Assembly (NCBI RefSeq): GCF_041886205.1
Contig: NZ_CP169029.1
From: Escherichia coli
Lineage (GTDB): Bacteria > Pseudomonadota > Gammaproteobacteria > Enterobacterales > Enterobacteriaceae
Length of the DNA: 64,000 bases
Reading direction: 5' to 3' (one strand)
The position numbers and the translations under genes are program-made. Shown piece after piece: positions 14,601 through 62,993 of this stretch. Each line of letters begins with the position of its first letter. Within the stretch, counting starts at the first letter, position 1. The notes below the pieces were generated by a model. It saw only the letters and a list, made by a program, of their open reading frames with translations. It was not told the origin of the DNA and did no database searches.

Positions 14601-15370
14601 AAAAAATTGTATCCCATGCGAACATACAAAAGGCATTTATCTAAAGCTTCACAATTTCCCGGATCTTGATTTTGATCATCTGATATCTGAATTTGCTGTA
14701 ATAGCAAGACTAATTCGGTCGCGTATTCTACCCCATGCTGTTGCGCCAGATAATCAAAAAGATCATTAGCGCTATCGCTATCTTGCATAAGAAACTTGAC
14801 CAGCAAAAAGAATGCATTGGAGAAAATCGAACCGTCTATATTTTTCTGCTGAACGCGCATGATTGCTTCATCCCGGCCTCGTTGCCATTCCGGGCGGCAG
14901 TCACTCACATCAAAATGCTGTAATTGTGCAAGAAAATAGTATTCCTCATATTTGTTTTCCCATAAGAGTGACCATAACGAGATATCTTTAGCAAACGTCC
15001 TGACACTGTCGGCTGGGAATTTCCTACTGCTAAATACTCTCTTTGTTTCGAGAATGATTGGTTCAAGGTCCGCAATCCACGGTGGTGTGTCGACATCAGT
15101 AATAATTGGATGTTGTTCGCTATCATCAGCTGTGGTGGGAACAGTTATCAGCATGTTTATATCGTCAGTCGATTTTACATACCCCTTCTTCACCTTCTCC
15201 GCAATCAACTTCAGCTCCGCTTTTTCCGCCGTTGCAGCATCCGCAAAACTTTTTACCTGGCTTTGCCCTTGGGTGCCAACTTTTCCCCAACTGATATGCA
15301 ACTCGTTTCCCTGTTGCTCCACCGCCCAGAATTTATGTGATTTTTCGTCCTGATAGATAAAGCGTCTCAT
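11631..15370 (-). pseudogene. molR: WGR + DUF4132 paralogue with a broken reading frame (molR/yehH-like)
   Basis: Two ORFs, 15370->13724 (548 codons, WGR N-terminus MRRFIYQDEKSHKFWAVEQQGNELHISWGKVG...) and 13820->11631 (729 codons), overlap by 97 nt in different frames. Joined, they are collinear with the 1252-aa neighbour. The downstream frame is -1 relative to the upstream frame. The gene symbol is tentative. Confidence 0.75.
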
Positions 15371-15468
15371 TCTGCATCCCTGTAATTTTATCCAGTTGAA
15401 TGCAGATGCTACCAGTATTTATGCGGGTTAGAGAGAGACAAAATCGCAAGAAAACAACTTTAGGAATT

Positions 15469-15501
15469 TATAAAGAAAAGGCGCTGTCGATGCAGCGCCT
15501 T
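15469..15501 (-). terminator. Rho-independent terminator of metG
   Basis: Stem AAGGCGCTG (15478-15486) / CAGCGCCTT (15493-15501). On the minus strand it is followed by TTCTTTAT. It lies 10 nt after the metG stop. Confidence 0.75.
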
Positions 15502-15510
15502 GAAGGGGGA

Positions 15511-17544
15511 TTATTTCACCTGATGACCCGGTTTAGCACCGGCATCCGGGCTTAGCAGGAAGATATCTTTCCCGCCAGGACCAGCAGCCATTACCATGCC
15601 TTCGGAGATACCAAAGCGCATTTTACGCGGCGCCAGGTTAGCCACCATAATGGTGTGACGACCAATCAGAGCCTGCGGATCCGGGTAAGCAGAACGAATG
15701 CCGGAGAAAACATTACGTTTTTCACCGCCGAGATCCAGTGTCAGTCGCAGCAGTTTGTCAGAACCTTCAACAAACTCTGCATTTTCAATCAGCGCCACGC
15801 GCAGGTCAACTTTAGCGAAGTCGTCAAAGGTGATGGTTTCCTGAATCGGATCGTCTGCCAGCGGGCCAGTAACTGTCGCGGCAGCTGCTTTCACTTCTTC
15901 TTTAGAGGCTTCCACCAGTGCTTCAACCTGCTTCATATCGATGCGGTTATACAGCGCCTTGAACGGATTCACTTTGTGGCCCAGCAGCGGTTGCTGGATA
16001 CCATCCCAGGTCAGTTCCGTATTGAGGAATGCTTCTGCACGCTCGGTCAGTTTCGGCAGTACCGGCTTCAGGTAAGTCATCAGCACGCGGAACAGGTTTA
16101 TGCCCATTGAGCAAATTGCCTGCAGGTCGGCATCGCGGCCTTCCTGTTTCGCCACAACCCACGGAGCCTGTTCATCGACATAGCGGTTAGCCAGATCAGC
16201 CAGCGCCATGATTTCGCGCACGGCTTTACCAAATTCGCGGCTTTCCCACGCTTCACCAATCACTTCAGCGGCATCAGTGAAGGTTTTGTACAACTGCGGG
16301 TCAGCCAGTTCGCTTGCCAGCACACCGTCAAAACGCTTGTTGATAAAGCCCGCATTACGAGAGGCCAGGTTAACCACTTTGTTAACGATATCGGCATTCA
16401 CGCGCTGAACGAAATCTTCCAGGTTGAGATCGATATCATCAATGCGCGAAGAGAGTTTCGCAGTGTAGTAGTAACGCAGGCTGTCAGCGTCAAAATGATT
16501 CAGCCAGGTGCTGGCTTTAATAAAGGTACCGCGAGACTTAGACATCTTCGCGCCGTTCACCGTCACATAGCCATGAACAAACAGGTTGGTCGGCTTGCGG
16601 AAGTTGCTGCCTTCCAGCATTGCTGGCCAGAACAGACTGTGGAAGTAAACAATATCTTTACCGATGAAGTGGTACAGCTCGGCGGTGGAGTCTTTCTTCC
16701 AGTATTCATCGAAGCTTACGCTGTCGCCGCGCTTGTCGCACAGATTCTTGAAAGAACCCATATAGCCAATCGGCGCATCTAGCCAGACGTAGAAATATTT
16801 ACCCGGCGCGTTCGGAATTTCAAAACCGAAGTACGGCGCGTCGCGGGAGATATCCCACTGTTGCAGGCCGGATTCAAACCACTCCTGCATTTTATTTGCC
16901 ACCTGCTCCTGCAACGCACCGCTGCGGGTCCATGCCTGCAACATTTCGCTGAAAGAGGGCAGATCAAAGAAGAAGTGTTCAGAATCACGCATTACCGGCG
17001 TAGCGCCAGAAACCACCGATTTCGGCTCGATCAATTCAGTCGGGCTGTAGGTCGCGCCGCAAACTTCGCAGTTATCGCCGTATTGATCCGGGGATTTACA
17101 TTTCGGGCAGGTGCCTTTCACAAAACGGTCCGGCAGGAACATGCCTTTTTCCGGATCGTACAGCTGAGAGATGGTGCGGTTTTTAATAAAACCGTTTTCT
17201 TTCAAGCGAGTATAGATAAGCTCAGACAACTGGCGGTTCTCTTCGCTGTGCGTCGAGTGATAGTTGTCATAGCTGATGTTAAAGCCTGCGAAATCAGTCT
17301 GATGCTCCTGACTCATTTCGCCAATCATCTGCTCCGGGGTGATACCAAGCTGCTGAGCTTTCAGCATGATTGGCGTACCGTGGGCATCGTCGGCGCAGAT
17401 GAAGTTGACCTCGTGGCCGCGCATTCGCTGGTAACGGACCCAGACATCAGCCTGGATGTGCTCCAGCATATGGCCGAGGTGGATTGAGCCGTTAGCGTAC
17501 GGCAGTGCGCACGTCACCAGAATTTTCTTCGCGACTTGAGTCAT
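15511..17544 (-). CDS. metG: Methionyl-tRNA synthetase (677 aa)
   Basis: ORF 15511..17553. The start is taken at [25 protein letters not shown] (HIGH-type motif). The KMSKS motif is present (GAKMSKSRG), as are the zinc knuckles CPKC...CEVC. Confidence 0.97.
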
Positions 17545-17675
17545 AGTAGGCATTACTTCTTAATAGTGAAAAGGGGTTAGATAGTACCAAATGGGAAAAT
17601 GTTAAGTAAGTACTTCTCTATATTCTTCAGGTAAACTATCAGCTGATGGTTTATCTATACAAAAAAGGAGTCGGG

Positions 17676-18785
17676 ATGAACGAACAATCCCAGGCCAAAT
17701 CACCAGAAGCCTTGCGCGCAATGGTCGCCGGGACACTGGCCAATTTTCAGCACCCAACCCTGAAGCATAACCTCACCACGCTGAAAGCGTTGCACCATGT
17801 CGCCTGGATGGACGACACGTTGCATGTGGAACTGGTTATGCCATTCGTCTGGCATAGCGCGTTTGAAGAGTTAAAAGAGCAATGTAGCGCCGAACTGCTG
17901 CGTATCACCGGGGCGAAAGCTATCGACTGGAAACTGTCGCACAATATCGCCACCTTAAAACGCGTGAAGAATCAGCCGGGTATTAATGGCGTGAAGAACA
18001 TCATTGCGGTCAGTTCCGGTAAAGGCGGCGTGGGTAAATCCTCCACGGCGGTAAACCTGGCGCTGGCACTGGCGGCGGAAGGGGCGAAAGTCGGCATTCT
18101 GGACGCCGATATCTACGGCCCATCAATTCCCACCATGCTGGGCGCAGAAAATCAGCGTCCAACTTCGCCGGACGGTACCCATATGGCACCGATTATGTCT
18201 CATGGCCTGGCAACCAATTCAATTGGTTATCTGGTCACTGACGACAATGCGATGGTGTGGCGTGGACCGATGGCGAGCAAGGCGTTAATGCAGATGTTGC
18301 AGGAAACCTTGTGGCCGGATCTGGACTATCTGGTACTCGACATGCCGCCAGGAACCGGTGACATTCAGCTGACGCTGGCGCAGAACATTCCGGTGACTGG
18401 TGCGGTAGTGGTCACCACCCCGCAGGACATCGCGCTGATCGATGCGAAAAAAGGCATTGTGATGTTCGAGAAAGTCGAAGTTCCGGTGCTCGGTATTGTC
18501 GAGAACATGAGTGTGCATATTTGCAGTAACTGTGGTCACCATGAACCGATTTTCGGTACCGGTGGTGCAGAGAAACTGGCTGAAAAATACCACACACAGC
18601 TGCTGGGGCAGATGCCGTTACACATCTCCTTACGTGAGGATCTCGATAAAGGCACGCCAACGGTTATCAGCCGTCCGGAGAGCGAATTTACCGCTATCTA
18701 TCGCCAGCTGGCTGACCGCGTTGCAGCTCAGCTCTACTGGCAGGGTGAAGTCATTCCCGGCGAGATTTCCTTCCGCGCGGTCTAA
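17676..18785 (+). CDS. apbC: Fe-S cluster carrier ATPase ApbC/Mrp (369 aa)
   Basis: ORF 17646..18785. The start is taken at MNEQSQAKSPEAL. It has the deviant Walker A SGKGGVGKS and the CSNCGH cluster-binding motif. It is divergent from metG. Confidence 0.95.
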   Translation: MNEQSQAKSPEALRAMVAGTLANFQHPTLKHNLTTLKALHHVAWMDDTLHVELVMPFVWHSAFEELKEQCSAELLRITGAKAIDWKLSHNIATLKRVKNQPGINGVKNIIAVSSGKGGVGKSSTAVNLALALAAEGAKVGILDADIYGPSIPTMLGAENQRPTSPDGTHMAPIMSHGLATNSIGYLVTDDNAMVWRGPMASKALMQMLQETLWPDLDYLVLDMPPGTGDIQLTLAQNIPVTGAVVVTTPQDIALIDAKKGIVMFEKVEVPVLGIVENMSVHICSNCGHHEPIFGTGGAEKLAEKYHTQLLGQMPLHISLREDLDKGTPTVISRPESEFTAIYRQLADRVAAQLYWQGEVIPGEISFRAV

Positions 18786-18813
18786 CGCCTATTAACCATT
18801 CTGGTTATTTTTC

Positions 18814-18856
18814 ATACACCGCAGAGATGTTACATTGATGCGGTGTATTTGTTTTT
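18814..18856 (+). terminator. Probable apbC terminator
   Basis: Stem ATACACCGCA (18814-18823) / TGCGGTGTAT (18839-18848), followed by TTGTTTTT. Confidence 0.65.
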
Positions 18857-19047
18857 GCCGCATTAATGAACACTTATTTAATACTGCGAATATTCTGCGG
18901 ACCTTCGTCCGAAACTCTACAAAGTCGATTGATCGTACAGGCAATGCTTCATTATCATCCTTCGTGGCTGTGTAGTGGATGTACAGCTATAGTTTGTTAT
19001 GCACTCATTCTATCCAGGCATAACCTTTACTACAGGGATAACGTTCA

Positions 19048-19329
19048 ATGAATAAGTATTGGCTGTCAGGAATTATTTTTCTTGCCTATGGATTGGCTTC
19101 TCCCGCATTCTCTTCACAGACTGCCACATTATCGATTAATGGCAGGATCAGTCCCCTAACATGCAGTATGACTATGGTTAATAGTCAACCTCAACAGCAT
19201 TGTGGTCAGTTAACGTATAATGTCGATACCCGTCATCAGGTTTCTTCGCCCGTCAAAGGTGTAAAGACAGAAGTGGTTGTTGCAGGTAGTGATAGCAAAC
19301 GTCGAATCGTGTTAAATCGATACGATTAA
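19048..19329 (+). CDS. yehE: Small secreted protein YehE (93 aa)
   Basis: ORF 19048..19329. It has an N-terminal signal peptide (MNKYWLSGIIFLAYGLASPAFS) and sits upstream of yehD as in the recalled K-12 order. Confidence 0.8.
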   Translation: MNKYWLSGIIFLAYGLASPAFSSQTATLSINGRISPLTCSMTMVNSQPQQHCGQLTYNVDTRHQVSSPVKGVKTEVVVAGSDSKRRIVLNRYD

Positions 19330-19360
19330 TTTGGCAACCTGATTTTAATTGCATTTAGAA

Positions 19361-19399
19361 AGCCGAAATCATTTATATAAATGATTTCGGCTTTTTTTA
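19361..19399 (+). terminator. Rho-independent terminator after yehE
   Basis: Perfect 14-bp stem AGCCGAAATCATTT / AAATGATTTCGGCT with an ATAT loop, followed by TTTTTTT. Confidence 0.85.
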
Positions 19400-19622
19400 T
19401 TGATATCAATAATACCATTTACATAAATCTACATTAATTAATAGATGCGATAAATATTTAATACTCTTAAGTATTTGTTGTATTTATATTGCATTGGTTA
19501 ATTTGTTTTAAATCAATAAAACAATATGTTTACATTGCGGCAACTTTTTTGATGTGAGAAATTTGTTTCCAAGAGATACAGACTCTTAACAACCAAAAAT
19601 AAATTTTATTAAGGAACATATT

Positions 19623-20165
19623 ATGAAACGTTCAATTATTGCTGCCGCTGTCTTTTCTTCTTTTTTTATGAGCGCTGGAGTATTTGCTGCAGACGTTGAT
19701 ACCGGAACATTAACCATTAAAGGAAATATTGCAGAATCTCCGTGTAAATTCGAAGCGGGTGGTGATTCAGTAAGTATTAATATGCCGACTGTACCAACCA
19801 CTGTCTTTGAAGGTAAAGCTAAATATTCTACCTATGATGATGCAGTCGGTGTAACCAGCAGCATGTTAAAAATTAGCTGCCCGAAAGAAGTTGCTGGTGT
19901 AAAACTCTCGTTGATTACCAACGATAAAATAACTGGTAACGATAAGGCGATAGCCAGTAGCAACGATACCGTGGGGTACTATCTCTATTTAGGTGATAAC
20001 AGCGATATCCTGGATATTTCTGCACCTTTTAACATTGAGAGTTATAAAACAGCGGAAGGTCAATATGCTATTCCGTTTAAAGCAAAATACCTGAAACTGA
20101 CAGATAACTCAGTGCAATCAGGTGATGTGTTATCTTCTCTGGTTATGCGTGTGGCGCAGGATTAA
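19623..20165 (+). CDS. yehD: Fimbrial major-subunit-like protein (180 aa)
   Basis: It has a signal peptide (MKRSIIAAAVFSSFFMSAGVFA), the pilin Cys pair (ESPCKF...ISCPKE) and a C-terminal beta-strand motif. It is the first gene of the chaperone-usher cluster. Confidence 0.9.
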   Translation: MKRSIIAAAVFSSFFMSAGVFAADVDTGTLTIKGNIAESPCKFEAGGDSVSINMPTVPTTVFEGKAKYSTYDDAVGVTSSMLKISCPKEVAGVKLSLITNDKITGNDKAIASSNDTVGYYLYLGDNSDILDISAPFNIESYKTAEGQYAIPFKAKYLKLTDNSVQSGDVLSSLVMRVAQD

Positions 20166-20246
20166 TAAATAAAAATTGCAAGTTTCTCCAGGTAATAAAC
20201 ATGGCCGCTATCCCCATGGCGGCTTTTTAATTTAAGAGGCATTAAG

Positions 20247-20921
20247 ATGAAAGGATTATTATCTTTACTCATTTTTTCTATGGTCCTTCCTGCGCATGCC
20301 GGAATTGTTATCTACGGGACGCGCATTATTTACCCGGCAGAAAATAAAGAAGTGATGGTGCAGTTGATGAACCAGGGAAACCGTTCTTCGCTGCTGCAGG
20401 CGTGGATTGATGATGGCGATACGTCGTTACCACCAGAAAAAATTCAGGTTCCTTTCATGTTAACGCCACCAGTGGCAAAAATAGGGGCAAATTCCGGGCA
20501 GCAAGTAAAAATCAAAATTATGCCGAATAAACTGCCCACTAATAAAGAAAGCATTTTTTATCTGAATGTTCTGGATATTCCACCAAATAGTCCAGAACAA
20601 GAAGGTAAGAATGCACTGAAGTTTGCGATGCAAAACAAAATCAAATTGTTTTACCGGCCGGCGGGTATTGCTCCGGTAAATAAAGCGACCTTTAAAAAGT
20701 TACTGGTAAATCGCAGTGGCAATGGATTGGTGATAAAAAATGACTCAGCTAATTGGGTGACGATTTCGGATGTCAAAGCTAATAATGTCAAAGTCAATTA
20801 TGAAACTATTATGATTGCCCCCTTAGAAAGTCAGAGTGTTAATGTCAGAAGTAATAATGCAAATAACTGGTATCTGACCATTATCGATGACCACGGTAAC
20901 TATATTAGTGACAAAATTTAA
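20247..20921 (+). CDS. yehC: Periplasmic fimbrial chaperone (PapD-like)
   Basis: It has a signal peptide MKGLLSLLIFSMVLPAHA followed by GIVIYGTRIIYP, NxG..SLLQAWID and KLFYRPAG, the typical chaperone signatures. Confidence 0.9.
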   Translation: MKGLLSLLIFSMVLPAHAGIVIYGTRIIYPAENKEVMVQLMNQGNRSSLLQAWIDDGDTSLPPEKIQVPFMLTPPVAKIGANSGQQVKIKIMPNKLPTNKESIFYLNVLDIPPNSPEQEGKNALKFAMQNKIKLFYRPAGIAPVNKATFKKLLVNRSGNGLVIKNDSANWVTISDVKANNVKVNYETIMIAPLESQSVNVRSNNANNWYLTIIDDHGNYISDKI

Positions 20922-22932
20922 TTGCAGGAGCTGCCTATGTTGAGAATGACCCCACTTGCATCAGCAATCGTAGCGTTATTGCTCGGCATTGAAGCTTATG
21001 CAGCTGAAGAAACCTTTGATACCCATTTTATGATAGGTGGAATGAAAGACCAGCAGGTTGCAAATATTCGTCTTGATGATAATCAACCCTTACCTGGGCA
21101 GTATGACATCGATATTTATGTCAATAAGCAATGGCGCGGGAAATATGAGATTATTGTTAAAGACAACCCGCAAGAAACATGTTTATCAAGAGAGGTTATC
21201 AAGCGGTTAGGCATTAATAGCGATAACTTCGCCAGCGGTAAGCAATGTTTAACATTTGAGCAACTTGTTCAGGGTGGGAGCTATACCTGGGATATCGGGG
21301 TTTTTCGTCTCGATTTCAGTGTCCCGCAGGCCTGGGTGGAAGAACTGGAAAGTGGCTATGTTCCACCGGAAAACTGGGAGCGGGGTATTAATGCGTTTTA
21401 TACCTCTTATTATCTGAGTCAGTATTACAGTGACTATAAAGCGTCGGGTAATAGTAAGAGTACATATGTACGTTTTAACAGCGGGTTAAATTTACTGGGG
21501 TGGCAACTGCATTCTGATGCCAGTTTCAGTAAAACAAATAACAATCCAGGGGTGTGGAAAAGTAATACCCTGTATCTGGAACGTGGATTTGCCCAACTTC
21601 TCGGCACGCTTCGCGTGGGTGATATGTACACATCAAGCGATATTTTTGATTCTGTTCGCTTCAGCGGTGTGCGGTTGTTTCGTGATATGCAGATGTTGCC
21701 TAACTCGAAACAAAATTTTACGCCACGGGTGCAGGGGATTGCTCAGAGTAACGCGCTGGTAACTATTGAACAGAACGGTTTTGTCGTTTATCAGAAAGAG
21801 GTTCCTCCTGGCCCGTTCGCGATTACAGATTTGCAGTTGGCCGGTGGTGGAGCAGATCTTGATGTCAGCGTGAAAGAGGCGGACGGCTCGGTAACCACCT
21901 ATCTGGTGCCTTATGCAGCGGTGCCAAATATGCTGCAACCCGGCGTGTCGAAATATGATTTTGCGGCGGGTCGTAGCCATATTGAAGGGGCGAGCAAACA
22001 AAGTGATTTTGTCCAGGCGGGTTATCAGTATGGTTTTAATAATTTATTGACGCTGTATGGTGGCTCGATGGTCGCGAATAATTATTACGCGTTTACTTTG
22101 GGGACTGGCTGGAATACACGCATTGGTGCCATTTCCGTCGATGCCACGAAGTCGCATAGTAAACAAGACAACGACGATGTGTTTGACGGGCAAAGTTATC
22201 AAATTGCCTACAACAAATTTGTGAGCCAAACGTCGACGCGTTTTGGTCTGGCGGCCTGGCGTTATTCATCGCGTGATTACCGGACATTTAATGATCACGT
22301 TTGGGCAAACAATAAAGATAATTATCGCCGTGATGAAAACGATGTCTATGACATTGCCGATTATTACCAGAACGATTTTGGCCGTAAAAATAGCTTCTCT
22401 GCCAATATGAGCCAGTCATTGCCAGAAGGCTGGGGGTCTGTGTCCTTAAGTACGTTATGGCGAGATTACTGGGGGCGTAGCGGCAGCAGTAAGGATTATC
22501 AGTTGAGTTATTCCAATAACTGGCGGCGGATAAGCTATATCCTCGCGGCAAGCCAGGCGTATGACGAGAATCATCATGAAGAGAAACGTTTTAATATTTT
22601 TATATCGATTCCCTTTGATTGGGGTGATGACGTTACGACGCCTCGTCGGCAAATATATATGTCTAACTCAACGACGTTTGATGATCAGGGGTTTGCCTCA
22701 AATAATACGGGATTATCAGGAACCGTTGGAAGCCGGGATCAGTTTAACTATGGGGTCAACCTGAGTTATCAGAATCAGGGAAATGAAACGACAGCTGGGG
22801 CGAATTTGACCTGGAACGCGCCGGTTGCGACAGTGAATGGCAGTTATAGTCAGTCGAGTACTTATCGACAGGCTGGAGCCAGTGTTTCAGGGGGCATTGT
22901 CGCCTGGTCGGGGGGCGTTAATCTGGCGAACC

Positions 22933-22941
22933 GTCTTTCCG
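22933..22941. repeat. IS1 target-site duplication, left copy (GTCTTTCCG)
   Basis: The identical 9-mer recurs at 23710..23718, immediately flanking the IS1 ends. Confidence 0.95.
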
Positions 22942-22956
22942 GGTAATGACTCCAAC

Positions 22957-23460
22957 TTATTGATAGTGTTTTATGTTCAGATAATGCCCGATAACTTTGT
23001 CATGCAGCTCCACCGATTTTGAGAACGACAGTGACTTCCTGCCCAGCCTTGCCAGATGCTGCCTCAGATTCAGGTTATGCCGCTCAATGCGCTGCGTATA
23101 TCGCTTGCTGATAACGTGCAGTTCTCCCTTCAGGCGTGATTCATAAAGCGGCCAGCCATCCGTCATCCATACCACGACCTCAAAGGCCGACAGCAGGCCC
23201 AGAAGACGCTCCAGCGTCGCCATAGTGCGTTCACCGAATACGTGCGCAACAACCGTCTTCCGGAGCCTGTCATACGCGTAAAACAGCCAGCGCTGGCGCG
23301 ATTTAGCCCCGACATAGCCCCACTGTTCGTCCATTTCCGCGCAGACGATGACGTCACTGCCCGGCTGTATGCGCGAGGTTACCGACTGCGGCCTGAGTTT
23401 TTTAAGTGACGTAAAATCGTGTTGAGGCCAACGCCCATAATGCGGGCAGTTGCCCGGCAT
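22957..23460 (-). CDS. insB: IS1 InsB' frame, expressed as the InsAB' transposase by -1 frameshifting
   Basis: ORF 22957..23460 overlaps the insA 3' end. The slippery A6C lies in the overlap. Confidence 0.9.
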
Positions 23461-23654
23461 CCAACGCCATTCATGGCCATATCAATGATTTTCTGGTGCG
23501 TACCGGGTTGAGAAGCGGTGTAAGTGAACTGCAGTTGCCATGTTTTACGGCAGTGAGAGCAGAGATAGCGCTGATGTCCGGCGGTGCTTTTGCCGTTACG
23601 TACCACCCCGTCAGTAGCTGAACAGGAGGGACAGCTGATAGAAACAGAAGCCAC
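23379..23654 (-). CDS. insA: IS1 InsA (91 aa)
   Basis: [46 protein letters not shown]..., the canonical IS1 InsA zinc-finger/HTH protein. Confidence 0.95.
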
Positions 23655-23709
23655 TGGAGCACCTCAAAAACACCATCATACACTAAATCAGTAAGTTGGC
23701 AGCATCACC

Positions 23710-23718
23710 GTCTTTCCG
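23710..23718. repeat. IS1 target-site duplication, right copy (GTCTTTCCG)
   Basis: See the left copy at 22933..22941. Confidence 0.95.
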
Positions 23719-24204
23719 AAACGTTTGCTGTGATGAATGCGCCAGGAATTAAAGATGCTTATGTCAATGGGCAAAAATATCGCACAACAAACCTTAATGG
23801 AGTGGTGGTATACGACGGAATGACACCTTATCGGGAAAATCACCTGATGCTGGATGTGTCGCAAAGCGATAGCGAAGCAGAATTACGTGGCAACCGGAAA
23901 ATTGCCGCCCCTTATCGCGGCGCGGTTGTACTGGTTAATTTTGATACCGATCAGCGCAAGCCATGGTTTATAAAAGCGTTAAGAGCAGATGGGCAACCAT
24001 TAACGTTTGGTTATGAAGTCAATGATATCCATGGTCATAATATTGGCGTTGTCGGCCAGGGAAGTCAGTTATTTATTCGCACCAATGAAGTACCGCCAGC
24101 GGTTAATGTAGCAATTGATAAGCAACAAGGACTTTCATGCACAATCACCTTCGGTAATGAGATTGATGAAAGTAGAAATTATATCTGTCGGTGAGAGGTG
24201 GAAT

Positions 24205-25239
24205 ATGATGTTCAGAAATGGAATGTTACTAATATTTATTTTATGGGCTAATTTTACCTGGGCTGGATGTCGTACCACTGCATCATTAAATATTACAGAT
24301 AGTATTAATGTGGGGGAGATTTTAGCGAATGAGGTTTCCTTTAGTAAAAATGTCGTGTTTACTGGGATATCTTGTGATACGAGCACGGATAAAATAGTTT
24401 ATAAAAATATCCAAAGTGATTGGGTTGAAGTTGGGCCTTTTGGTAATGGTGAAAAGTTAAAGGTTAAAATAGAGTCTTTAGGTAAAACCAGTGAGACGAT
24501 TGGGAAATCCAGCAATGCGCAGGCAGAATTACCCTATGTGGTTAAAATTGCCAGAGGTACACTTGATTTTACTGGAGAAAGAAAACCAACCTGGTTTCTT
24601 TCAGATACTGTGATTGCAAATATTGGCGGTGAGTCATCTACATCCATCGACTTTTGGTTGGGAATTTGTAAGACATTGAAGATTAACTGGTGTGTAAGTT
24701 ATCTCACCAGTAAACTGGCGGGGGATACATTTACGCTTGGGTTAAGCATTTCCTATTATCCTAAAAATACGACCTGTAAGCCTGAAAACATAATAATAAA
24801 AGTAGATGATATTGCCTTGTCCCAGCTCAGAAGTCAGGGAAAGATTACGGCGAACAGTAAGGAAGGAGTAATTACGTTGAAATGTGATAATCTTTTCGGC
24901 GACAAAAACCAAGCATCGCGGAATATGGTCGTATATCTTTCCAGCAGTGACTTAGTTACAGGAAGCAATACAATTTTGCGTGGAAATATAGATAATGGTG
25001 TAGGATTTGTGTTGGATCTAAAAGAACCACCAAAAGGGACTGAAGCTGCCATCAAAATTTCTGCTAGCGGCAATCAGGGCGCGGCGACATCATTATGGAA
25101 AACAGATAAACCTGGGACTTCTTTAAATAGCAATATTATTAATATACCAATCATGGCCAGTTACTACGTCTACGATACAAACAAAGTTAAATCTGGCGCA
25201 CTGGAGGCAACCGCATTAATCAACGTGAAATACGACTAA
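24205..25239 (+). CDS. yehA: Fimbrial tip-adhesin-like protein (344 aa)
   Basis: ORF 24115..25239. The start is taken at ATG 24205 (MMFRNGMLLIFILWANFTWAG signal peptide), preceded by GAGAGG. The longer extension overlaps the yehB 3' end. Confidence 0.85.
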   Translation: MMFRNGMLLIFILWANFTWAGCRTTASLNITDSINVGEILANEVSFSKNVVFTGISCDTSTDKIVYKNIQSDWVEVGPFGNGEKLKVKIESLGKTSETIGKSSNAQAELPYVVKIARGTLDFTGERKPTWFLSDTVIANIGGESSTSIDFWLGICKTLKINWCVSYLTSKLAGDTFTLGLSISYYPKNTTCKPENIIIKVDDIALSQLRSQGKITANSKEGVITLKCDNLFGDKNQASRNMVVYLSSSDLVTGSNTILRGNIDNGVGFVLDLKEPPKGTEAAIKISASGNQGAATSLWKTDKPGTSLNSNIINIPIMASYYVYDTNKVKSGALEATALINVKYD

Positions 25240-25295
25240 TAACAAGCAAGACGAGCAAGTGGCTAATAATAAAAAATAACAAGGTGTCTGCATTT

Positions 25296-25322
25296 CCCCC
25301 TCATGATGAGGGGGCTTTTTTT
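25296..25322 (+). terminator. Rho-independent terminator of the yeh fimbrial operon
   Basis: Stem CCCCCTCAT / ATGAGGGGG followed by CTTTTTTT. It abuts the rcnB stop on the opposite strand. Confidence 0.85.
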
Positions 25323-25659
25323 AGCGATGATAAAAAATCTCACCGTCGTAGGCTTTAATGATTTTACCGTCGGTGTCGCTGATCAACACGTACGCGCCAC
25401 CCATATAGGTCCAGTGCGTCCCGGCATCAGGCGCGGGCAGGTTACGTAACTGCCACTGCTTAATGTTGTACTCATCGGTGCGGTACATCTCTGGGACGGT
25501 ATCGCCTGGTTTGAAATGCTTAAAGTCAGCAATGAAACTGCTTAACTCATACTTAGAAATTCCCGAGGTATTGGTCGAACCCGCGGTGGCTGGTGCGGCC
25601 CAGGCGGCACTGGTAACCAGCAAAAGCGCACCCAGTGACATCTTATTTTTAATGGTCAT
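25321..25659 (-). CDS. rcnB: Periplasmic Ni/Co homeostasis protein RcnB (112 aa)
   Basis: ORF 25321..25884. The start is taken at MTIKNKMSLGALLLVTSAAWA (signal peptide), which gives the recalled 112-aa RcnB/YohN. Confidence 0.88.
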   Translation of the reverse strand: MTIKNKMSLGALLLVTSAAWAAPATAGSTNTSGISKYELSSFIADFKHFKPGDTVPEMYRTDEYNIKQWQLRNLPAPDAGTHWTYMGGAYVLISDTDGKIIKAYDGEIFYHR

Positions 25660-25880
25660 AAACTCTCCACTTTGGGGATCTGTAATATCAGTCGCATATC
25701 TTTCCTGCCATACAATATAACTGACAAGCGATATTTTGTTAGTGATCCCATGATTTCGTAAAAAGTGTAAATGAAAGGATGCCCTAAAAGCATCCTTAGC
25801 GAGCAGAGAGTCAGCGGAAATAGCTGATTTAAGAATCATCCTGGGCTGAAGATAACATGCAAGCCTAAAGGATTGAGTTA

Positions 25881-26727
25881 TCACATTATGCCCATGAAGC
25901 CATGTACGCCCATATACACACCGACTAAGCCAATCAACAGACTGGAAAAATAGGGGGCGCGTTTAGCGAGAGTGTTAAATCCGCTCCAGCGTTTTGCGAC
26001 CTGCTGAACGCTGATTGCTGCGCCAACGCCTACGGTGACAAGCGTTAACGCCAGGCCAATGCTGAAACTGACGACCAGTGTTGCGCCCAGTGTCAGGGCT
26101 TTCAACTGAATGCATATCAACAGCACGGTAATTGCTGCCGGGCAGGGGATAAGGCCACCGGTTAAGCCAAATAACAAAATTTGCCAGTTGGTGACCTCTC
26201 TACCATCAAAGCGTCGTTTAATGTCATTGGCATGGGCTCGTGCATGGGCATCCTGATACTCGCCATGTTCGTGATGGTGATGATGTCCATGGTCGAGGTG
26301 ATGTTCGTGGTCTTGATGATGTTCGTGATCGTGATGATGGTGATGATGCTCATAATCATGCCCGTGCATATTCTCCAGCCAGTTGCGTTCGCCGCGCCAG
26401 GTACGCCAGAACATCCAGAACGCGGTGCCAATAATGATCACTGCGGAAATCAGCTGGAGCCACGGTTCTGCTGATTGAGCAGTAAAGCGCTTACTGATCA
26501 CCATCCCGCCAAAGGCAATCAACCAGACCACCGCGGTATGCGAAATGGTTGCTGCCAGTCCGAGCATCACCGCCTGTTTAATGGTGCCTTTGGATGGCGA
26601 TGATAAACGCCGCCATCATCGTTTTTGAGTGCCCTGGTTCCAGGCCATGAAGCGCACCAAGTAAGATGGCGCTGGGGATGAAGAACCAGGCGTTTCCTTG
26701 CTGAAGAAGAGTTGTAAATTCGGTCAT
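25881..26727 (-). pseudogene. rcnA: Ni/Co efflux protein RcnA with a frameshift after codon ~45
   Basis: ATG 26727 reads MTEFTTLLQQGNAWFFIPSAILLGALHGLEPGHSKTMMAAFIIAI, then QRHH-stop at 26578-26580. The rest of the protein (…KGTIKQAVMLGLAATISHTAVVW…, the His-rich loop, …GFMGIM) continues in another frame to 25881. The junction is at CCATCCAAAGG (about 26592). Confidence 0.8.
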
Positions 26728-56808: not shown

Positions 56809-56971
56809 TGGAGGAATTATGAAACACTGTCTGGAATCGTCTGAATGACGGGCACATTTGCGAGCACGCATCCAGTAATAACACAGGAAACTATTTTATC
56901 TACGCGTTAGCGATAGACTGCTTGCATGGCGAAAGGAGGTAAGCCGACGATTTCAGCGGGACGCTGAAACG

Positions 56972-57108
56972 GGAAAGCCCCTCCCGAGGAAGGGGCCATA
57001 AATAAGGAAAGGGTCATGATGAAGCTACTCATCATCGTGGTGCTCTTAGTCATAAGCTTCCCCGCTTACTAAGACTACCAGGGCGGGGGAAACCCCGCTC
57101 TACCCTCA
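56972..57108 (-). ncRNA. Sib antisense antitoxin sRNA, copy 1 (ends approximate, +/-10 nt)
   Basis: Minus-strand promoter: TTGACA (57143-57138), a 17-nt spacer, TACTTT (57120-57115). The terminator hairpin GCCCCTTCC/GGGAGGGGC (56977-56996) is followed by TTTCCC. It is fully antisense to the ibs ORF. Confidence 0.7.
57016..57072 (+). CDS. ibsB: Ibs-family hydrophobic toxin peptide, MMKLLIIVVLLVISFPAY (18 aa)
   Basis: A short ORF with AAGG upstream. Its sequence equals the recalled IbsB-type peptide. Assigning A/B symbols within a 4-copy array is arbitrary. Confidence 0.8.
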   Translation: MMKLLIIVVLLVISFPAY

Positions 57109-57299
57109 CTCCTGAAAGTATGCCTTCACGATAAGATTGTCAATCCGCAGGCTTTGTAGTCTGCGATCCTGCCAGCAAATATTCTTTGCGAGTCGTTACG
57201 CAATAATCACAGAGGAAACTATTTTATTCACGCGTTAGCGATAGACTGCATTCAGGGCGAAAGGAGGTAAGCCGATGATTTCAGCGGGACGCTGAAACG

Positions 57300-57437
57300 G
57301 GAAAGCCTCTCCCGGAGAAGAGGGCTTTTAATAAGGAAAGGGTTATGATGAAGCTACTCATCATCGTGGTGCTCTTAGTGATTAGCTACCCAGCATACTA
57401 AGACTACCAGGGCGGGGGAAACCCCGCTCTACCCTCA
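57300..57437 (-). ncRNA. Sib antisense sRNA, copy 2 (ends approximate)
   Basis: TTGACA (57472-57467), 17 nt, TACTTT (57449-57444). The terminator hairpin is a variant with a bulge (AGCCTCTCCCGGAGAAGAGGGCT). Confidence 0.65.
57345..57401 (+). CDS. Ibs-family toxin peptide, MMKLLIIVVLLVISYPAY
   Basis: The equivalent ORF in repeat unit 2. Confidence 0.75.
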   Translation: MMKLLIIVVLLVISYPAY

Positions 57438-57628
57438 TTCCTGAAAGTATGCCTTCACGGTCAGATTGTCAATCTGCAGGCTTTGCAGTCTGCGATCCTG
57501 CCAGCAAATATTCTTTGCGAGACGTTACGCAATAATCACACTGGAAACTATTTTATCCGCAAGTCAGCGATAGACTGCATACAGGGCGAAAGGAGGTAAG
57601 CCGACGATTTCAGCGGGACGCTGAAACG

Positions 57629-57765
57629 GGAAAGCCCCTCCCGAGGAAGGGGCCATAAATAAGGAATGGGTCATGATGAAGTGGATCATCATCGTGGTGC
57701 TCTTAGTCATAAGCTTCCCGGCTTACTAAGACTACCAGGGCGGGGGAAACCCCGCTCTACCCTCA
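57629..57765 (-). ncRNA. Sib antisense sRNA, copy 3 (ends approximate)
   Basis: Same promoter and terminator architecture as copy 1 (-10 at 57772-57777 on the plus-strand coordinate). Confidence 0.65.
57673..57729 (+). CDS. Ibs-family toxin peptide, MMKWIIIVVLLVISFPAY
   Basis: The equivalent ORF in repeat unit 3. Confidence 0.75.
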   Translation: MMKWIIIVVLLVISFPAY

Positions 57766-57956
57766 CTCCTGAAAGTATGCCTTCACGGTCAGATTGTCAA
57801 TCCGCAGGCTTTGTAGTCTGCGATCCTGCCAGCAAATATTCTTTGCGAGTCGTTACGCAATAATCACACTTGAAACTATTTTATCCGCAAGTCAACGATA
57901 GACTGCATACAGGGCGAAAGGAGGTAAGCCGACGATTTCAGCGGGACGCTGAAACG

Positions 57957-58093
57957 GGAAAGCCCCTCCCGAAGAAGGGGCATTAAATAAGGAAAGGGTC
58001 ATGATGAAGATACTCATCATCGTGGTGCTCTTAGTGATTAGCTACCCAGCATACTAAGACTACCAGGGCGGGGGAAACCCCGCTCTACCCTCA
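57957..58093 (-). ncRNA. Sib antisense sRNA, copy 4 (ends approximate)
   Basis: TTGACA, a 17-nt spacer and TACTTT are retained even though the flanking repeat sequence diverges here. Confidence 0.65.
58001..58057 (+). CDS. Ibs-family toxin peptide, MMKILIIVVLLVISYPAY
   Basis: The equivalent ORF in repeat unit 4. Confidence 0.75.
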   Translation: MMKILIIVVLLVISYPAY

Positions 58094-58274
58094 CTCCTGA
58101 AAGTATGTCACTCAACCCTTGTTGTCAATCTGTAAGCCCACGTTCTTGCGAGGCGAATAGCAAAATTATCTACGCCGCCGGGCCTAATTCTGAAAGTTTC
58201 TTCGTTTGCTCTTATTTCATTATTGCAGTCGGTATGATACCGGACCTCAATAATTCTCTAAGAAAGGATTTCTT

Positions 58275-58934
58275 ATGAGCGAACAAATCACGTTTGCCAC
58301 CAGCGATTTTGCCAGTAACCCGGAACCACGTTGCCCCTGCATTCTGCTGCTGGATGTTTCTGGCTCGATGAGCGGCAGACCTATTAATGAACTTAACGCC
58401 GGATTGGTTACCTTTCGCGATGAGCTGCTTGCCGATCCGCTGGCCTTAAAAAGAGTGGAACTCGGTATTGTGACGTTCGGCCCGGTGCATGTGGAACAAC
58501 CCTTTACCAGCGCCGCTAATTTTTTCCCGCCCATCCTGTTTGCCCAGGGCGATACACCAATGGGGGCCGCCATTACCAAAGCCCTGGATATGGTTGAAGA
58601 GCGGAAACGTGAGTATCGTGCAAATGGTATTTCGTATTATCGCCCGTGGATTTTCCTGATCACCGATGGTGCACCAACCGATGAGTGGCAGGCTGCCGCC
58701 AACAAAGTGTTTCAGGGGGAAGAAGATAAGAAGTTTGCTTTCTTTTCCATTGGTGTTCAGGGGGCGGATATGAAGACGCTGGCACAAATCAGCGTTCGTC
58801 AGCCTTTGCCTCTGCAAGGATTACAATTCCGTGAACTGTTTAGCTGGTTATCCAGTTCGCTGCGTTCGGTTTCCCGCTCCACGCCGGGAACGGAAGTTGT
58901 GCTGGAAGCGCCAAAAGGCTGGACGTCAGTGTGA
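58275..58934 (+). CDS. yegL: TerY-like von Willebrand factor A (vWA) domain protein
   Basis: 219 aa with MIDAS residues [11 protein letters not shown] ... GDTPMG ... [10 protein letters not shown]. Its stop overlaps the yegK start (GTGA at 58931). Confidence 0.92.
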
Positions 58935-59692
58935 GCTGGCGTCTGGTTTATGCATCCGTTGTTGGAACGTCGCACATTAGCGCTGATTTACCTTGTCAGG
59001 ATGCCTGCCAGATGCAGGTTGCCTGGCTAAATGACCAGCAGCCATTATTGTCGGTATTTGTCGCTGATGGCGCAGGCAGTGTCTCGCAGGGTGGCGAAGG
59101 CGCGATGCTCGCCGTCAATGAAGCGATGGCTTATATGTCGCAAAAAGTGCAGGGTGGGGAATTGGGGCTTAATGATGTCCTCGCCACGGATATTGTACTG
59201 ACTATTCGTCAGCGACTTTTTGCCGAGGCGGAAGCCAAAGAATTAGCGGTTCGCGATTTTGCCTGCACATTTCTGGGACTGATTTCATCGCCTGACGGCA
59301 CCTTGATTATGCAGATTGGCGATGGCGGCGTGGTGGTGGATTTTGGTCACGGTCTGCAATTGCCGCTTACGCCGATGGTGGGTGAATATGCCAATATGAC
59401 GCATTTCATTAGCGATGAAGATGCTGTTTCCAGACTGGAAACTTTCACCAGCAATGAGCGTGCGCATAAAGTTGCAGCATTTACGGATGGTATTCAGCGA
59501 CTGGCGTTAAATATGCTGGATAATTCTCCGCATGTGCCTTTCTTTACCCCGTTTTTCAATGGACTGGCGGCAGCAACGCAGGAACAACTCGATTTATTAC
59601 CTGAATTGTTAAAGCAGTTTTTGTCCAGCCCGGCGGTAAACGAGCGTACCGATGATGATAAAACGTTGGCACTGGCGCTGTGGTTACCATGA
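58931..59692 (+). CDS. yegK: PP2C-like Ser/Thr protein phosphatase
   Basis: 253 aa with [17 protein letters not shown] and FTDG acidic/metal-binding motifs of the PP2C_2 type. It is recalled as PphC. Confidence 0.9.
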
Positions 59693-61629
59693 AACCCACT
59701 TTATATACTGCTACTGGTGAGTGCGTTACGCCAGGCCGTGAACTGGGCAAAGGTGGTGAAGGCGCGGTTTATGATATCGAGGAGTTTGTCGATAGCGTCG
59801 CCAAGATTTATCACACGCCGCCACCCGCCTTAAAACAGGACAAACTTGCCTTTATGGCTGCGACAGCTGACGCGCAGTTGTTGAATTATGTCGCCTGGCC
59901 GCAGGCAACGCTTCACGGTGGACGAGGCGGAAAAGTTATCGGTTTTATGATGCCAAAAGTTTCTGGTAAAGAACCGATTCATATGATCTATAGCCCGGCA
60001 CATCGTCGCCAGAGTTACCCTCATTGTGCGTGGGATTTTCTACTCTATGTTGCGCGCAATATTGCTTCATCTTTTGCTACGGTTCACGAGCACGGGCACG
60101 TCGTGGGTGACGTAAACCAGAACAGTTTTATGGTAGGTCGCGACAGCAAAGTGGTACTGATTGATAGCGACTCCTTTCAGATTAACGCCAATGGCACACT
60201 GCATTTATGCGAAGTCGGCGTGTCGCATTTTACGCCGCCAGAGCTACAAACCTTGTCGTCATTTGTCGGCTTTGAACGCACAGAAAATCACGATAATTTT
60301 GGCCTTGCGTTGCTGATTTTTCACGTCTTGTTTGGTGGCCGGCATCCTTATTCTGGTGTGCCGCTTATCTCTGATGCGGGTAATGCGCTGGAGACGGATA
60401 TTACCCATTTCCGTTATGCCTACGCGTCAGATAATCAGCGACGTGGTTTAAAACCGCCGCCACGATCGATTCCGCTATCGATGTTACCGAGTGATGTTGA
60501 AGCCATGTTTCAGCAGGCATTCACGGAAAGTGGCGTGGCAACCGGGCGTCCGACGGCTAAAGCGTGGGTAGCGGCACTTGATTCTCTGCGCCAACAGTTA
60601 AAGAAATGTCCCGTTTCGGCAATGCATGTTTATCCCGCTCATTTGACCGACTGCCCGTGGTGTGCGCTGGATAATCAAGGCGTTATCTATTTTATTGATC
60701 TCGGCGAAGAGGTCATTACCACCAGCGGTGATTTTGTGCTGGCGAAAGTCTGGGCGATGGTGATGGCGTCAGTAGCACCGCCAGCATTGCAATTGCCATT
60801 ACCCGATCATTTCCAACCGACTGGCAGGCCGCTTCCTTTAGGCCTGTTACGGCGCGAATACATCATTCTGATTGAGATCGCACTGTCAGCGTTATCGCTG
60901 TTGCTTTGCGGCCTTCAGGCAGAACCGCGTTATATTATTTTGGTTCCTGTGCTGTCGGCTATCTGGATTATTGGCAGTCTGACAAGCAAAGCGTACAAAG
61001 CAGAAGTTCAGCAACGCCGTGAGGCATTTAATCGCGCGAAAATGGACTATGACCATTTATTCAGCCAGATCCAACAGTTGGGCGGGCTGGAAGGTTTTAT
61101 CGCCAAACGGACGATGCTCGAAAAAATGAAGGACGAAATGCTCGGGTTACCGGAAGAAGAAAAACGTGCTCTGGCAGCACTTCACGACACCGCAAGGAAA
61201 CGGCAGAAGCAGAAGTTTCTGGAGGGATTTTTTATTGATGTTGCCTCTATTCCCGGCGTTGGCCCTGCGCGTAAAGCGGCGTTACGGTCCTTTGGTATTG
61301 AAACAGCAGCGGATGTTACCCGTCGTGGGGTTAAGCAAGTGAAAGGGTTTGGTGATCATCTGACCCAGGCAGTTATCGACTGGAAAGCAAGTTGCGAACG
61401 CCGTTTTGTGTTCAGGCCGAATGAAGCGGTAACGCCAGCAGACAGACAAGCGGTAATGGCGAAAATGACCGCCAAACGACATCGGCTGGAATCGACGTTG
61501 ACTGTCGACGCGACAGAGTTGCAGCGATTCCGCCTTCATGCTCCAGCACGGACCATGCCGTTGATGGAACCGTTACGTCAGGCGGCAGAAAAACTGGCTC
61601 AGGCGCAGGCTGATTTAAGCCGCTGCTGA
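59689..61629 (+). CDS. yegI: Ser/Thr protein kinase with transmembrane and C-terminal helix-hairpin-helix modules
   Basis: ORF 59680..61629 (GTG). I prefer ATG 59689, which overlaps the yegK stop as ATGA. Motifs are the Gly loop GKGGEGAVY, Lys VAKIY, catalytic loop GDVNQNS, DSD (DFG-like) and TPPE (APE-like). Two hydrophobic helices span residues ~393-436. HhH repeats are IPGVGPARKAALRSFGI and VKGFGDHLTQAVIDW. Confidence 0.9.
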   Translation: MKPTLYTATGECVTPGRELGKGGEGAVYDIEEFVDSVAKIYHTPPPALKQDKLAFMAATADAQLLNYVAWPQATLHGGRGGKVIGFMMPKVSGKEPIHMIYSPAHRRQSYPHCAWDFLLYVARNIASSFATVHEHGHVVGDVNQNSFMVGRDSKVVLIDSDSFQINANGTLHLCEVGVSHFTPPELQTLSSFVGFERTENHDNFGLALLIFHVLFGGRHPYSGVPLISDAGNALETDITHFRYAYASDNQRRGLKPPPRSIPLSMLPSDVEAMFQQAFTESGVATGRPTAKAWVAALDSLRQQLKKCPVSAMHVYPAHLTDCPWCALDNQGVIYFIDLGEEVITTSGDFVLAKVWAMVMASVAPPALQLPLPDHFQPTGRPLPLGLLRREYIILIEIALSALSLLLCGLQAEPRYIILVPVLSAIWIIGSLTSKAYKAEVQQRREAFNRAKMDYDHLFSQIQQLGGLEGFIAKRTMLEKMKDEMLGLPEEEKRALAALHDTARKRQKQKFLEGFFIDVASIPGVGPARKAALRSFGIETAADVTRRGVKQVKGFGDHLTQAVIDWKASCERRFVFRPNEAVTPADRQAVMAKMTAKRHRLESTLTVDATELQRFRLHAPARTMPLMEPLRQAAEKLAQAQADLSRC

Positions 61630-61640
61630 GCCATTTTCTT

Positions 61641-62993
61641 TTAACGAAACACCACTTCCGCCCAGCGTGCCAGCCCGGCGGTGACGGAGCCAAAGTCATC
61701 GCCGCCTGCAATCGGAATTCCCGGCAACTGTTCTGCCAGCGCTTTTTTAATCAGCGGCGAACGGGCGCTACCGCCGGTCAGGTAGATAACGTCCGGTTTT
61801 TCCTGGGCGTTATCCAGGGCCAGTTGCACCTGTTCCAGAATCCGCGCCAGTGGCTGGCTGAGGGCGCTTTCCAGCCCTTGCTGGCTAATCAGCGTAGCCA
61901 GTTCATCGCTGATAAACGGCAGTGAGGCGCGGGTTTCCGCTACGCTTGAAAGAGCAATTTTGCACTCTTCTGCGCTACGCACCAGGCGATAGCTTAAACG
62001 CTGACGCCAGACTTTCTGTAGCAGGGCCACTTTTTCCGGTTCGCGGGCATCGCGTACCAGATCGTTAAGCAGACGACCGTTGGCACTACTGTAGAAATCA
62101 CTCTGCGCAGGTACGTCGTTGATGGCAACCGCATTCCACCACGGCAGAATCGGCAGGGCGATGCCTTTTTCGGTTTCGCCACCCATGCCCAGTAACGGCA
62201 TCAGGTTTTTAAACGCCAGTGCGATGTCCAGATCGTTACCGCCAATACGGCAACCACTGTGACCCAGCAGGCTGGCTTCACGATCGAGACGCGAACGCCA
62301 CTGCGGCCCCATCAGCAGCAATGAACAGTCAGTCGTACCACCGCCGATATCCACCACCAGCACCCGTTTTTCTTCCTGCAAGGTGGCTTCGTAATCCAGC
62401 CCAGCCGCGACCGGCTCGTACTGGAATACCACGTCCCTGAATCCGGCACGCTTCGCCGCGCGTTCCAGAATCCCTTGCGCCTGGGCGTTTGCTTCATCGC
62501 CGCCCAGCCCCTGGAAGTTGATCGGGCGACCAATCACCGCCTGAGTAATCGCTTCTGGCAGCTGCGCCTGCGCCTGCTGGCGAATGTGCAACATCATTGC
62601 GCAGACCAGATCCTCAAACAGCGCTACCTGCTGCGGTTTTAAGCCGCTGGCACCGAGGAACGATTTTGGTGATTTCACAAACCACACTTCTTCTGGATCA
62701 TCAATGTACTGTGCCAGTGAGGAAAGACCGAACTGCACGCTTTTCGCCGTAACATCGATATCTTCTTCGCGGTTATAACGAATCGCCCGACGTAACAGCG
62801 CCTGCGTTTCATCGTCGTCTGCCGGAACATCATGATGGCGGTACAGCCATTCACTTACTGCTTCACGCGTTGGCGCGCAAAGCATTGAAGGCAGCAGCGT
62901 GCTGTCGTTTTCCATTTTCAGTAATTGCGGTTTACCGTCACGCATGACCGCCACTGAACAGTTTGCTGTACCGTAATCAAAACCAATAAACAC
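61641..62993 (-). CDS. yegD: Hsp70/actin-fold ATPase YegD (nucleotide-binding domain only)
   Basis: 450 aa with FIGFDYGTANCSVA, VVDIGGGTTDCSL and IYLTGGSARSPLI, the Hsp70 phosphate-1, phosphate-2 and adenosine motifs. Confidence 0.93.
   Translation of the reverse strand: MFIGFDYGTANCSVAVMRDGKPQLLKMENDSTLLPSMLCAPTREAVSEWLYRHHDVPADDDETQALLRRAIRYNREEDIDVTAKSVQFGLSSLAQYIDDPEEVWFVKSPKSFLGASGLKPQQVALFEDLVCAMMLHIRQQAQAQLPEAITQAVIGRPINFQGLGGDEANAQAQGILERAAKRAGFRDVVFQYEPVAAGLDYEATLQEEKRVLVVDIGGGTTDCSLLLMGPQWRSRLDREASLLGHSGCRIGGNDLDIALAFKNLMPLLGMGGETEKGIALPILPWWNAVAINDVPAQSDFYSSANGRLLNDLVRDAREPEKVALLQKVWRQRLSYRLVRSAEECKIALSSVAETRASLPFISDELATLISQQGLESALSQPLARILEQVQLALDNAQEKPDVIYLTGGSARSPLIKKALAEQLPGIPIAGGDDFGSVTAGLARWAEVVFR

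Follow-up and report, generated by a model that had tools for sequence, protein, structure and literature searches.

The yegI gene of Escherichia coli, which lies in the 64,000-nucleotide (nt) stretch of contig NZ_CP169029.1 analysed here (the window), encodes a membrane-anchored Ser/Thr kinase, and we propose that its cytoplasmic helix-hairpin-helix (HhH) tail binds nucleic acid and promotes trans-autophosphorylation, a reading to which we give a probability of about one half. Here, a tandem HhH domain, (HhH)2, would bind the backbone of a nucleic acid, most likely double-stranded DNA near the inner membrane. This binding would gather at least two YegI molecules and so favor a concentration-dependent trans-autophosphorylation that activates the kinase. 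The phosphatase PphC, encoded by the preceding gene, would reset YegI, and YegL, encoded by the first gene of the operon, would be the likely partner or target of the switch. The tail would thus serve as a cytoplasmic input or positioning module, with the membrane hairpin as a passive anchor.

Residues are numbered here from the GTG at 59680 that opens a 649-codon frame (59680..61629, plus strand); the RefSeq start of yegI is the ATG at 59689, giving a protein of 646 amino acids (aa). Published YegI residue numbers equal the window numbers minus 3, an offset that fits 10 of 10 literature residues. An initial annotation, made from the letters of the window, had placed four elements after the kinase domain of this frame, namely a possible zinc-binding knuckle, two strongly hydrophobic segments, a charged coiled-coil-like region and tandem HhH motifs, and we recovered all four where it had put them. 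The gene is E. coli yegI and is core in the species: in a megablast search with a 4-kb stretch carrying the locus, at least 80% of the length was matched in 5400 of 5426 complete E. coli genomes, with a top identity of 99.2%, and the matching genomes annotate the gene as 'protein kinase YegI' or 'helix-hairpin-helix domain-containing protein'. Kinase activity and a two-pass topology are already on record for the same gene (Rajagopalan and Dworkin, FEBS Lett 2020; bioRxiv 10.1101/819920); the sections of that text that were searched do not contain the term 'helix-hairpin' and do not discuss the tail.

Critical to the proposed mechanism is the fold of the tail. AlphaFold2 modeling of aa 300-649 with 49 sequences, a check that the initial annotation had called for, gave a mean predicted local distance difference test score (pLDDT) of 87 and a helical tail that includes the helices of the transmembrane (TM) hairpin and of the HhH motifs. 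The first motif, IPGVGPARKAALRSFGI, spans aa 524-540 (nt 61249-61299) and the second, VKGFGDHLTQAVIDW, spans aa 554-568 (nt 61339-61383). Foldseek comparison of the whole aa 300-649 model with the Protein Data Bank (PDB) returned coiled-coil noise and no match at E <= 0.001, so the HhH domain was modeled alone (aa 510-585, pLDDT 86), with helices at aa 529-537, 548-552 and 559-575. The isolated domain matched the N-terminal domains of Rad51, Dmc1 and RadA (probability up to 1.0, TM-score 0.65), with further matches to Hjm, ComEA (8dss_B), Dpo4, DisA and UvrC, and PDB profile searches with the region gave the thumb of REV1 and Pol IV as the best matches, weak ones (E 0.05-0.12). Of 137 sequences (from a set of 142 representatives), 131-134 (>95%) retain the two glycine-hydrophobic-glycine (G-h-G) hairpins, a basic residue follows at 531 (R/K) in 69 of 69 sequences and at 532 (K/R) in 66 of 69, and the net charge of the domain is +5 in YegI, with a family median of +4. 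The HhH block is also the most conserved part of YegI: its mean column identity is 0.70, and the kinase domain (0.67) and the TM helices (0.32) score lower. As modeled, the YegI tail holds a true (HhH)2 fold, in keeping with the tandem motifs first called from the letters, and this fold, together with both hairpins and the conserved basic residues, makes nucleic-acid binding by the tail plausible.

Where the tail sits in the cell is settled by published PhoA-LacZalpha fusions. Fusions to published residues 340, 390, 439 and 646 report a cytoplasmic location and fusions to 414 and 432 a periplasmic or membrane one, the R414 fusion (window R417) being PhoA-positive (Rajagopalan and Dworkin; bioRxiv 10.1101/819920), making YegI a two-pass inner-membrane protein with both ends in the cytoplasm. 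Once renumbered, the fusion sites fall exactly on the two hydrophobic segments, which bears out the membrane tether that had been proposed from their hydrophobicity. The periplasmic turn between the two TM helices is QAEPR, and these 5 residues leave no room for an external sensor; on the other side, a single AlphaFold2 helix (aa 418-468) carries the second TM helix straight into the cytoplasm. In 39 of 48 representatives the hydrophobic hairpin of about 40 residues persists together with its short turn, conserved in character and not in sequence (mean column identity of the TM helices, 0.32). Since YegI lacks an external domain and its TM sequences are poorly conserved, we infer that the input to the kinase must be cytoplasmic, and because the tail is the most constrained part and keeps its phosphate-binding hairpins, nucleic-acid binding is favored. 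The pattern of constraint, high in the HhH block and low in the TM helices, fits a tail that may have a specific ligand role and a TM hairpin that may be a passive anchor.

YegI is active as a Ser kinase, with a preference for Mn2+; its autophosphorylation follows second-order kinetics and occurs in the activation loop and on two serines of the tail, S602 and S644 (window S605 and S647) (Rajagopalan and Dworkin, FEBS Lett 2020; bioRxiv 10.1101/819920). PphC has been published to dephosphorylate YegI. A hint of a link to DNA, in favor of the proposed mechanism, comes from a published screen in which overproduction of YegI or of YegL raised endogenous DNA damage, although the screen does not separate direct from indirect effects.

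Several points weigh against nucleic-acid binding as the input. The same fold mediates protein contacts in the NusA acidic-repeat (AR) and SAM domains. All Pfam HhH models stay below their gathering scores on the YegI tail (HHH_5 at 24.4 bits versus 27; IMS_HHH, IMS_HHH_1, Cdd1 and HHH each slightly sub-threshold), and, the HhH domain being short, Foldseek and the PDB profiles give weak E-values (0.05-1). Purified YegI autophosphorylates in vitro with no DNA added, making DNA at most a modulator, and mutation of the tail phosphosites (S602A/S644A) changed autophosphorylation modestly (Rajagopalan and Dworkin; bioRxiv 10.1101/819920). The literature found describes no inducing condition for the operon and no substrate or effector of YegI.

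The kinship of the fold with SAM and NusA acidic-repeat domains allows a reading in which the (HhH)2 and its flanking helices form a protein-protein module, through which YegI would oligomerize or would recruit YegL, PphC or a substrate to the membrane with no nucleic acid involved. Protein-binding HhH derivatives usually lose the G-h-G hairpins and the basic residues. In the YegI family these phosphate-binding hairpins and the basic residues that follow them are almost invariant, and the top Foldseek matches are all DNA-handling proteins, so that we regard such a module as rather unlikely, if the strongest of the competing explanations. A different arrangement would make DNA the output and not the input, the kinase controlling, through S605 and S647, whether its HhH tail holds DNA at the membrane, and so tethering or blocking chromosomal or foreign DNA. 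In favor of this, the two autophosphorylation sites lie in conserved tail helices beside an invariant E604 and the LAQAxADL end, and overproduction of YegI or YegL raises DNA damage. However, the autophosphorylation change of the S602A/S644A double mutant was modest, no DNA phenotype has been tied to these sites (bioRxiv 10.1101/819920), and the overproduction screen mixes direct and indirect effects, which together leave DNA as the output quite improbable. That the tail binds RNA or another membrane polyanion in place of DNA, in a triad linked to RNA-targeting conflict systems, is very improbable. TerY-P triads do accompany CoCoNuT systems predicted to target RNA (PMC11090510) and HhH-type domains of NusA do work in an RNA context, yet the nearest folds to the YegI tail (the Rad51 N-terminal domain, DisA, ComEA, Dpo4 and UvrC) bind DNA and CoCoNuT genes are not among the nearest neighbors of the YegI-type cassettes examined.

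Table 1. Coordinates of the yegL-pphC-yegI triad and of the parts of YegI in the window (residues in window numbering).
Feature	Position (nt)	Strand	Description
yegL	58275..58934	+	first triad gene; TerY-type vWA with DxSxS MIDAS motif (DVSGS); Pfam VWA E 6.4e-10
pphC (yegK)	58931..59692	+	second triad gene; PP2C phosphatase; Pfam PP2C_2 E 8.1e-52
yegI	59689..61629	+	third triad gene; Ser/Thr kinase; megablast and annotation
Divergent Hanks-type kinase domain, aa 1-300	59680..60579	+	published activity; invariant catalytic residues
Zinc knuckle/ribbon (likely), aa 305-335	60592..60684	+	likely ligands C310, H316, C325, C328; C-x5-H-x8-CPWC
Linker hydrophobic/amphipathic helix, aa 352-370	60733..60789	+	Kyte-Doolittle peak 1.64; AlphaFold2 helix aa 354-363
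Transmembrane helix 1, aa 393-412	60856..60915	+	Kyte-Doolittle 19-residue peak 2.31; AlphaFold2 helix aa 392-412
Transmembrane helix 2, aa 418-436	60931..60987	+	Kyte-Doolittle 19-residue peak 1.94
Charged helical stalk, aa 437-515	60988..61224	+	three helices, breaks at G468/G469 and G489-P491; AlphaFold2 pLDDT >90
(HhH)2 domain (modeled), aa 516-580	61225..61419	+	hairpins G526-V-G528 and G556-F-G558
C-terminal helical hairpin, aa 581-649	61420..61629	+	AlphaFold2 helices aa 586-615 and 617-648; conserved LAQAxADL end

The remaining parts of YegI complete this architecture (Table 1). In the kinase domain, K42, D144, N146, D162, D164 and S165 are invariant among 47 full-length representatives from an index-free search (described below; 32-50% identical to YegI), the catalytic loop reads VGDVNQ, and DSD stands in place of DFG. 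The Pfam Pkinase model gives no match to YegI at E <= 0.1, and partial matches to PADLOC and NCBIfam kinase cores were found; as Pfam Pkinase misses a kinase that is experimentally active, domain scans can overlook this family. The Cys/His cluster KKCPVSAMHVYPAHLTDCPWC (aa 308-328, nt 60601-60663) follows the kinase domain. In the same 47 representatives C310, H316, C325, W327 and C328 are 100% conserved and H321 is not, which defines the putative metal site as C-x5-H-x8-C-P-W-C, and AlphaFold2 places two short strands there, followed by a helix that starts at CPWC. This Cys-His-Cys-Cys cluster is likely a zinc knuckle, as had been suggested. A third hydrophobic stretch (aa 352-370), with proline-rich flanks and a W358 kept in 45 of 48 sequences, lies between the knuckle and the first TM helix; published fusions on both sides of it are cytoplasmic, and it may therefore form an interfacial or amphipathic helix. 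Beyond the helix that continues the second TM segment, the stalk contains AlphaFold2 helices at aa 470-488 and 490-514. The description of this region as a charged, coiled-coil-like helix held in part: charge (25-44% D/E/K/R) and helices are there, and heptad a/d periodicity exceeds that of shuffled sequences solely at aa 438-468 (p = 0.009, uncorrected, six segments tested) and not in the other helices.

The initial annotation had called a membrane-tethered kinase with an HhH tail an unusual combination, a view that does not survive comparison with existing catalogs. The kinase-plus-HhH design is cataloged as COG4248, the Joint Genome Institute (JGI) gives an equivalent name to many YegI homologs, and, as set out below, the family is large and the gene core in E. 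coli. With the architecture and topology already published or cataloged, the recovery of YegI from raw sequence brings nothing new in itself; the fold assignment and the family-wide conservation add detail to YegI and do not define a new entity.

YegI and its neighbors most resemble the TerY-P triad, defined as a vWA protein, a PP2C phosphatase and a kinase-zinc ribbon protein (Anantharaman, Iyer and Aravind 2012, as summarized by Bell et al., 2024, PMC11090510). In both, a single operon encodes a vWA protein of the TerY type, a PP2C phosphatase and a Ser/Thr kinase whose kinase domain is followed directly by a zinc ribbon. On the YegL side, COG4245 is described as the von Willebrand factor protein of the R478 tellurite (ter) region, and YegL shares 29-37% identity with proteins of ter plasmids that are annotated as TerY (E down to 1e-17). 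Other TerY-P kinases carry at the position of the tail a zinc ribbon or an OB fold read as nucleic-acid binding (PMC11090510), an analogy in favor of the same role for the YegI tail, whereas in YegI-type kinases the zinc ribbon is followed by a membrane hairpin, a helical stalk and (HhH)2. In addition, the YegI-type loci examined are stand-alone cassettes and do not belong to McrBC/CoCoNuT operons. A stand-alone TerY-P cassette active against T7-like phages has been described (Gao et al., 2020) and has the same three protein types, but its kinase ends in an OB fold, in contrast to the all-helical tail of YegI with its TM hairpin and (HhH)2.

Three further systems share single traits with YegI, and the first two, both among the fold matches, are analogs of the proposed mechanism. 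DisA, found by Foldseek, likewise joins a signaling enzyme through a helical spine to an HhH domain, but it is a soluble octameric diadenylate cyclase and not a membrane-anchored kinase, and it has no sequence kinship with YegI outside the HhH fold. ComEA, which binds incoming double-stranded DNA without sequence preference, holds an (HhH)2 domain at the membrane via an anchor; unlike the cytoplasmic tail of YegI, it faces outward and is without an enzymatic domain. The PASTA-type Hanks kinases PknB and PrkC are, like YegI, membrane-anchored Ser/Thr kinases with a PP2C partner and activation by dimerization, but they cross the membrane once and carry extracellular PASTA sensors, whereas YegI has two membrane passes, about 5 residues on the outside and its additional domains in the cytoplasm, with no extracytoplasmic sensor domain.

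The family extends far beyond E. coli. A genome-contig search confirmed 230 loci, and 80 related loci fetched with the peptide pattern FGIETAAD span beta-, gamma- and delta-proteobacteria, Acidobacteria, Verrucomicrobia, Planctomycetes, Nitrospira, Paenibacillus and archaea of the genus Methanoregula. Because these loci (L003-L082) were chosen by this pattern, the invariance of SFGIETAAD among them is unusable as evidence, and conservation was re-measured on an index-free set, for which an HMMER search with the tail (aa 440-649) gave 2025 clusters (50% identity) at E <= 1e-3 and 1186 at E <= 1e-10. Most full-length members have 640-655 residues, with the tail at the equivalent position. Among the fetched loci with upstream sequence, nearly all preserve the vWA-PP2C-kinase order. 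Measured against their E. coli counterparts, the YegL proteins are 60-78% identical, the kinase domains 39-76% and the C-terminal halves 30-50%. Conservation within the triad is thus highest in YegL, which is 60-63% identical between E. coli and Methanoregula (loci L067, L069, L070, L074 and L082), pointing to a cassette that crossed recently between domains of life.

Departures from the standard architecture were also seen. In four members (P0187, P0177, P0244 and P0167) the tail is extended by normally periplasmic domains (TonB_C, bacterial SH3 and weak peptidoglycan-binding matches), for which an extra membrane pass or another topology would be needed. TPR repeats are fused to the tail in several family members, and a DnaJ-TPR protein follows the kinase in the distant locus L002; a chaperone or TPR link to the YegI family is possible. 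In Candidatus Methylophosphatis (L045:1843-7001), an insert of about 5 kb, containing IS66- and IS5-type transposases and a DruA-like open reading frame (ORF), interrupts the kinase gene and separates its kinase-domain part from the part for the C-terminal half.

In the window itself, pphC overlaps yegL by 4 nt and the yegI ATG overlaps the pphC stop by 4 nt, the latter suggesting translational coupling. No yegJ lies between pphC and yegI, which is the non-K-12 arrangement, as published. The gene that follows, yegD (Hsp70/actin-fold; 61641-62993, minus strand), is convergent with yegI across an 11-nt gap; we rejected it as a member of the system because it is a neighbor solely in Escherichia and Shigella. 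Clustering of all flanking ORFs of 77 loci, in search of a fourth conserved gene or an effector, found none that is conserved. Only two kinds recurred, a DUF4236 protein (13 loci) and a small membrane protein with a zinc ribbon (5 loci). The DUF4236 accessory has about 380 aa, with DUF4236 at the N-terminus and predicted membrane helices, and occurs on either side and either strand of the triad (loci L017, L022, L025, L035, L037, L047, L048, L059, L063, L064, L066, L078 and L081). The 134 nearest neighbors are mixed, a few being defense or mobile genes (MADS mad3 and mad8, WYL, Mrr, PIN, JetA, reverse transcriptase and transposases) and others housekeeping genes.

The cassette also occurs on mobile DNA. 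The kinase is present on 83 plasmid records, 46 of them conjugative, including Agrobacterium and Rhizobium plasmids and Pseudomonas megaplasmids (pQBR103), and on a Rhizobium rhizogenes plasmid it adjoins Hxs, DUF262 and UvrD genes. Carriage by phages was rejected, as a tblastn search of 50,697 phage records found no YegI homolog and one weak, kinase-only match. YegL, PphC and YegI each match, at full length and with very high scores (YegI 1519.8 bits), a PHROG of unknown function; with no phage record carrying YegI, these matches probably reflect host DNA inside prophage calls.

Whether the cassette belongs to a known defense family was addressed with the PADLOC models, and membership in the validated TerY-P defense family was rejected on this basis. 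The TerY-P models did not recognize the triad: YegL scored E 0.013 (13.1 bits) against TerY, PphC had no match at E up to 10, and YegI, at E up to 10, had weak matches to the MkoA and PD-T4-6 kinases alone and none to a TerY-P kinase model. No phage phenotype for yegL-pphC-yegI is reported in the literature found. The proposal that the kinase senses incoming foreign DNA, made in the initial annotation, thus has no direct support, given variable flanking genes with few defense genes among them and PADLOC TerY-P models that miss the triad. A broader version of it, in which the YegI-type cassette would be a widespread, mobile, stand-alone immune or stress module whose tail detects DNA at the inner membrane (phage injection, conjugative entry or stalled DNA), upon which the kinase would switch YegL by phosphorylation, strikes us as doubtful.

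Elsewhere in the window, a module of about 329 nt occurs in four tandem copies between mdtA and yegL (56881-58165). Each contains a minus-strand Sib antitoxin RNA (Rfam SIB_RNA, 132-142 bits), and the copies correspond to annotated Ibs toxin genes of matching E. coli genomes; K-12 has two copies at the mdtA-yegL site. In addition, several 2-kb blocks within 14001-26000 have a guanine-plus-cytosine (G+C) fraction of 0.41-0.44 versus about 0.50-0.56 elsewhere, suggesting horizontally acquired genes.

Hanks-type kinases are few in E. coli, YegI being one of them, and its conserved tail is the obvious place to seek its signal. Were the doubtful immune or stress role of the cassette true, YegI would represent a protein kinase that senses DNA at the bacterial membrane and differs from the validated OB-fold TerY-P system. 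Should the tail bind DNA and gate the kinase, as we propose, functional tests would come within reach for a large family, of at least 1186 clusters at 50% identity.

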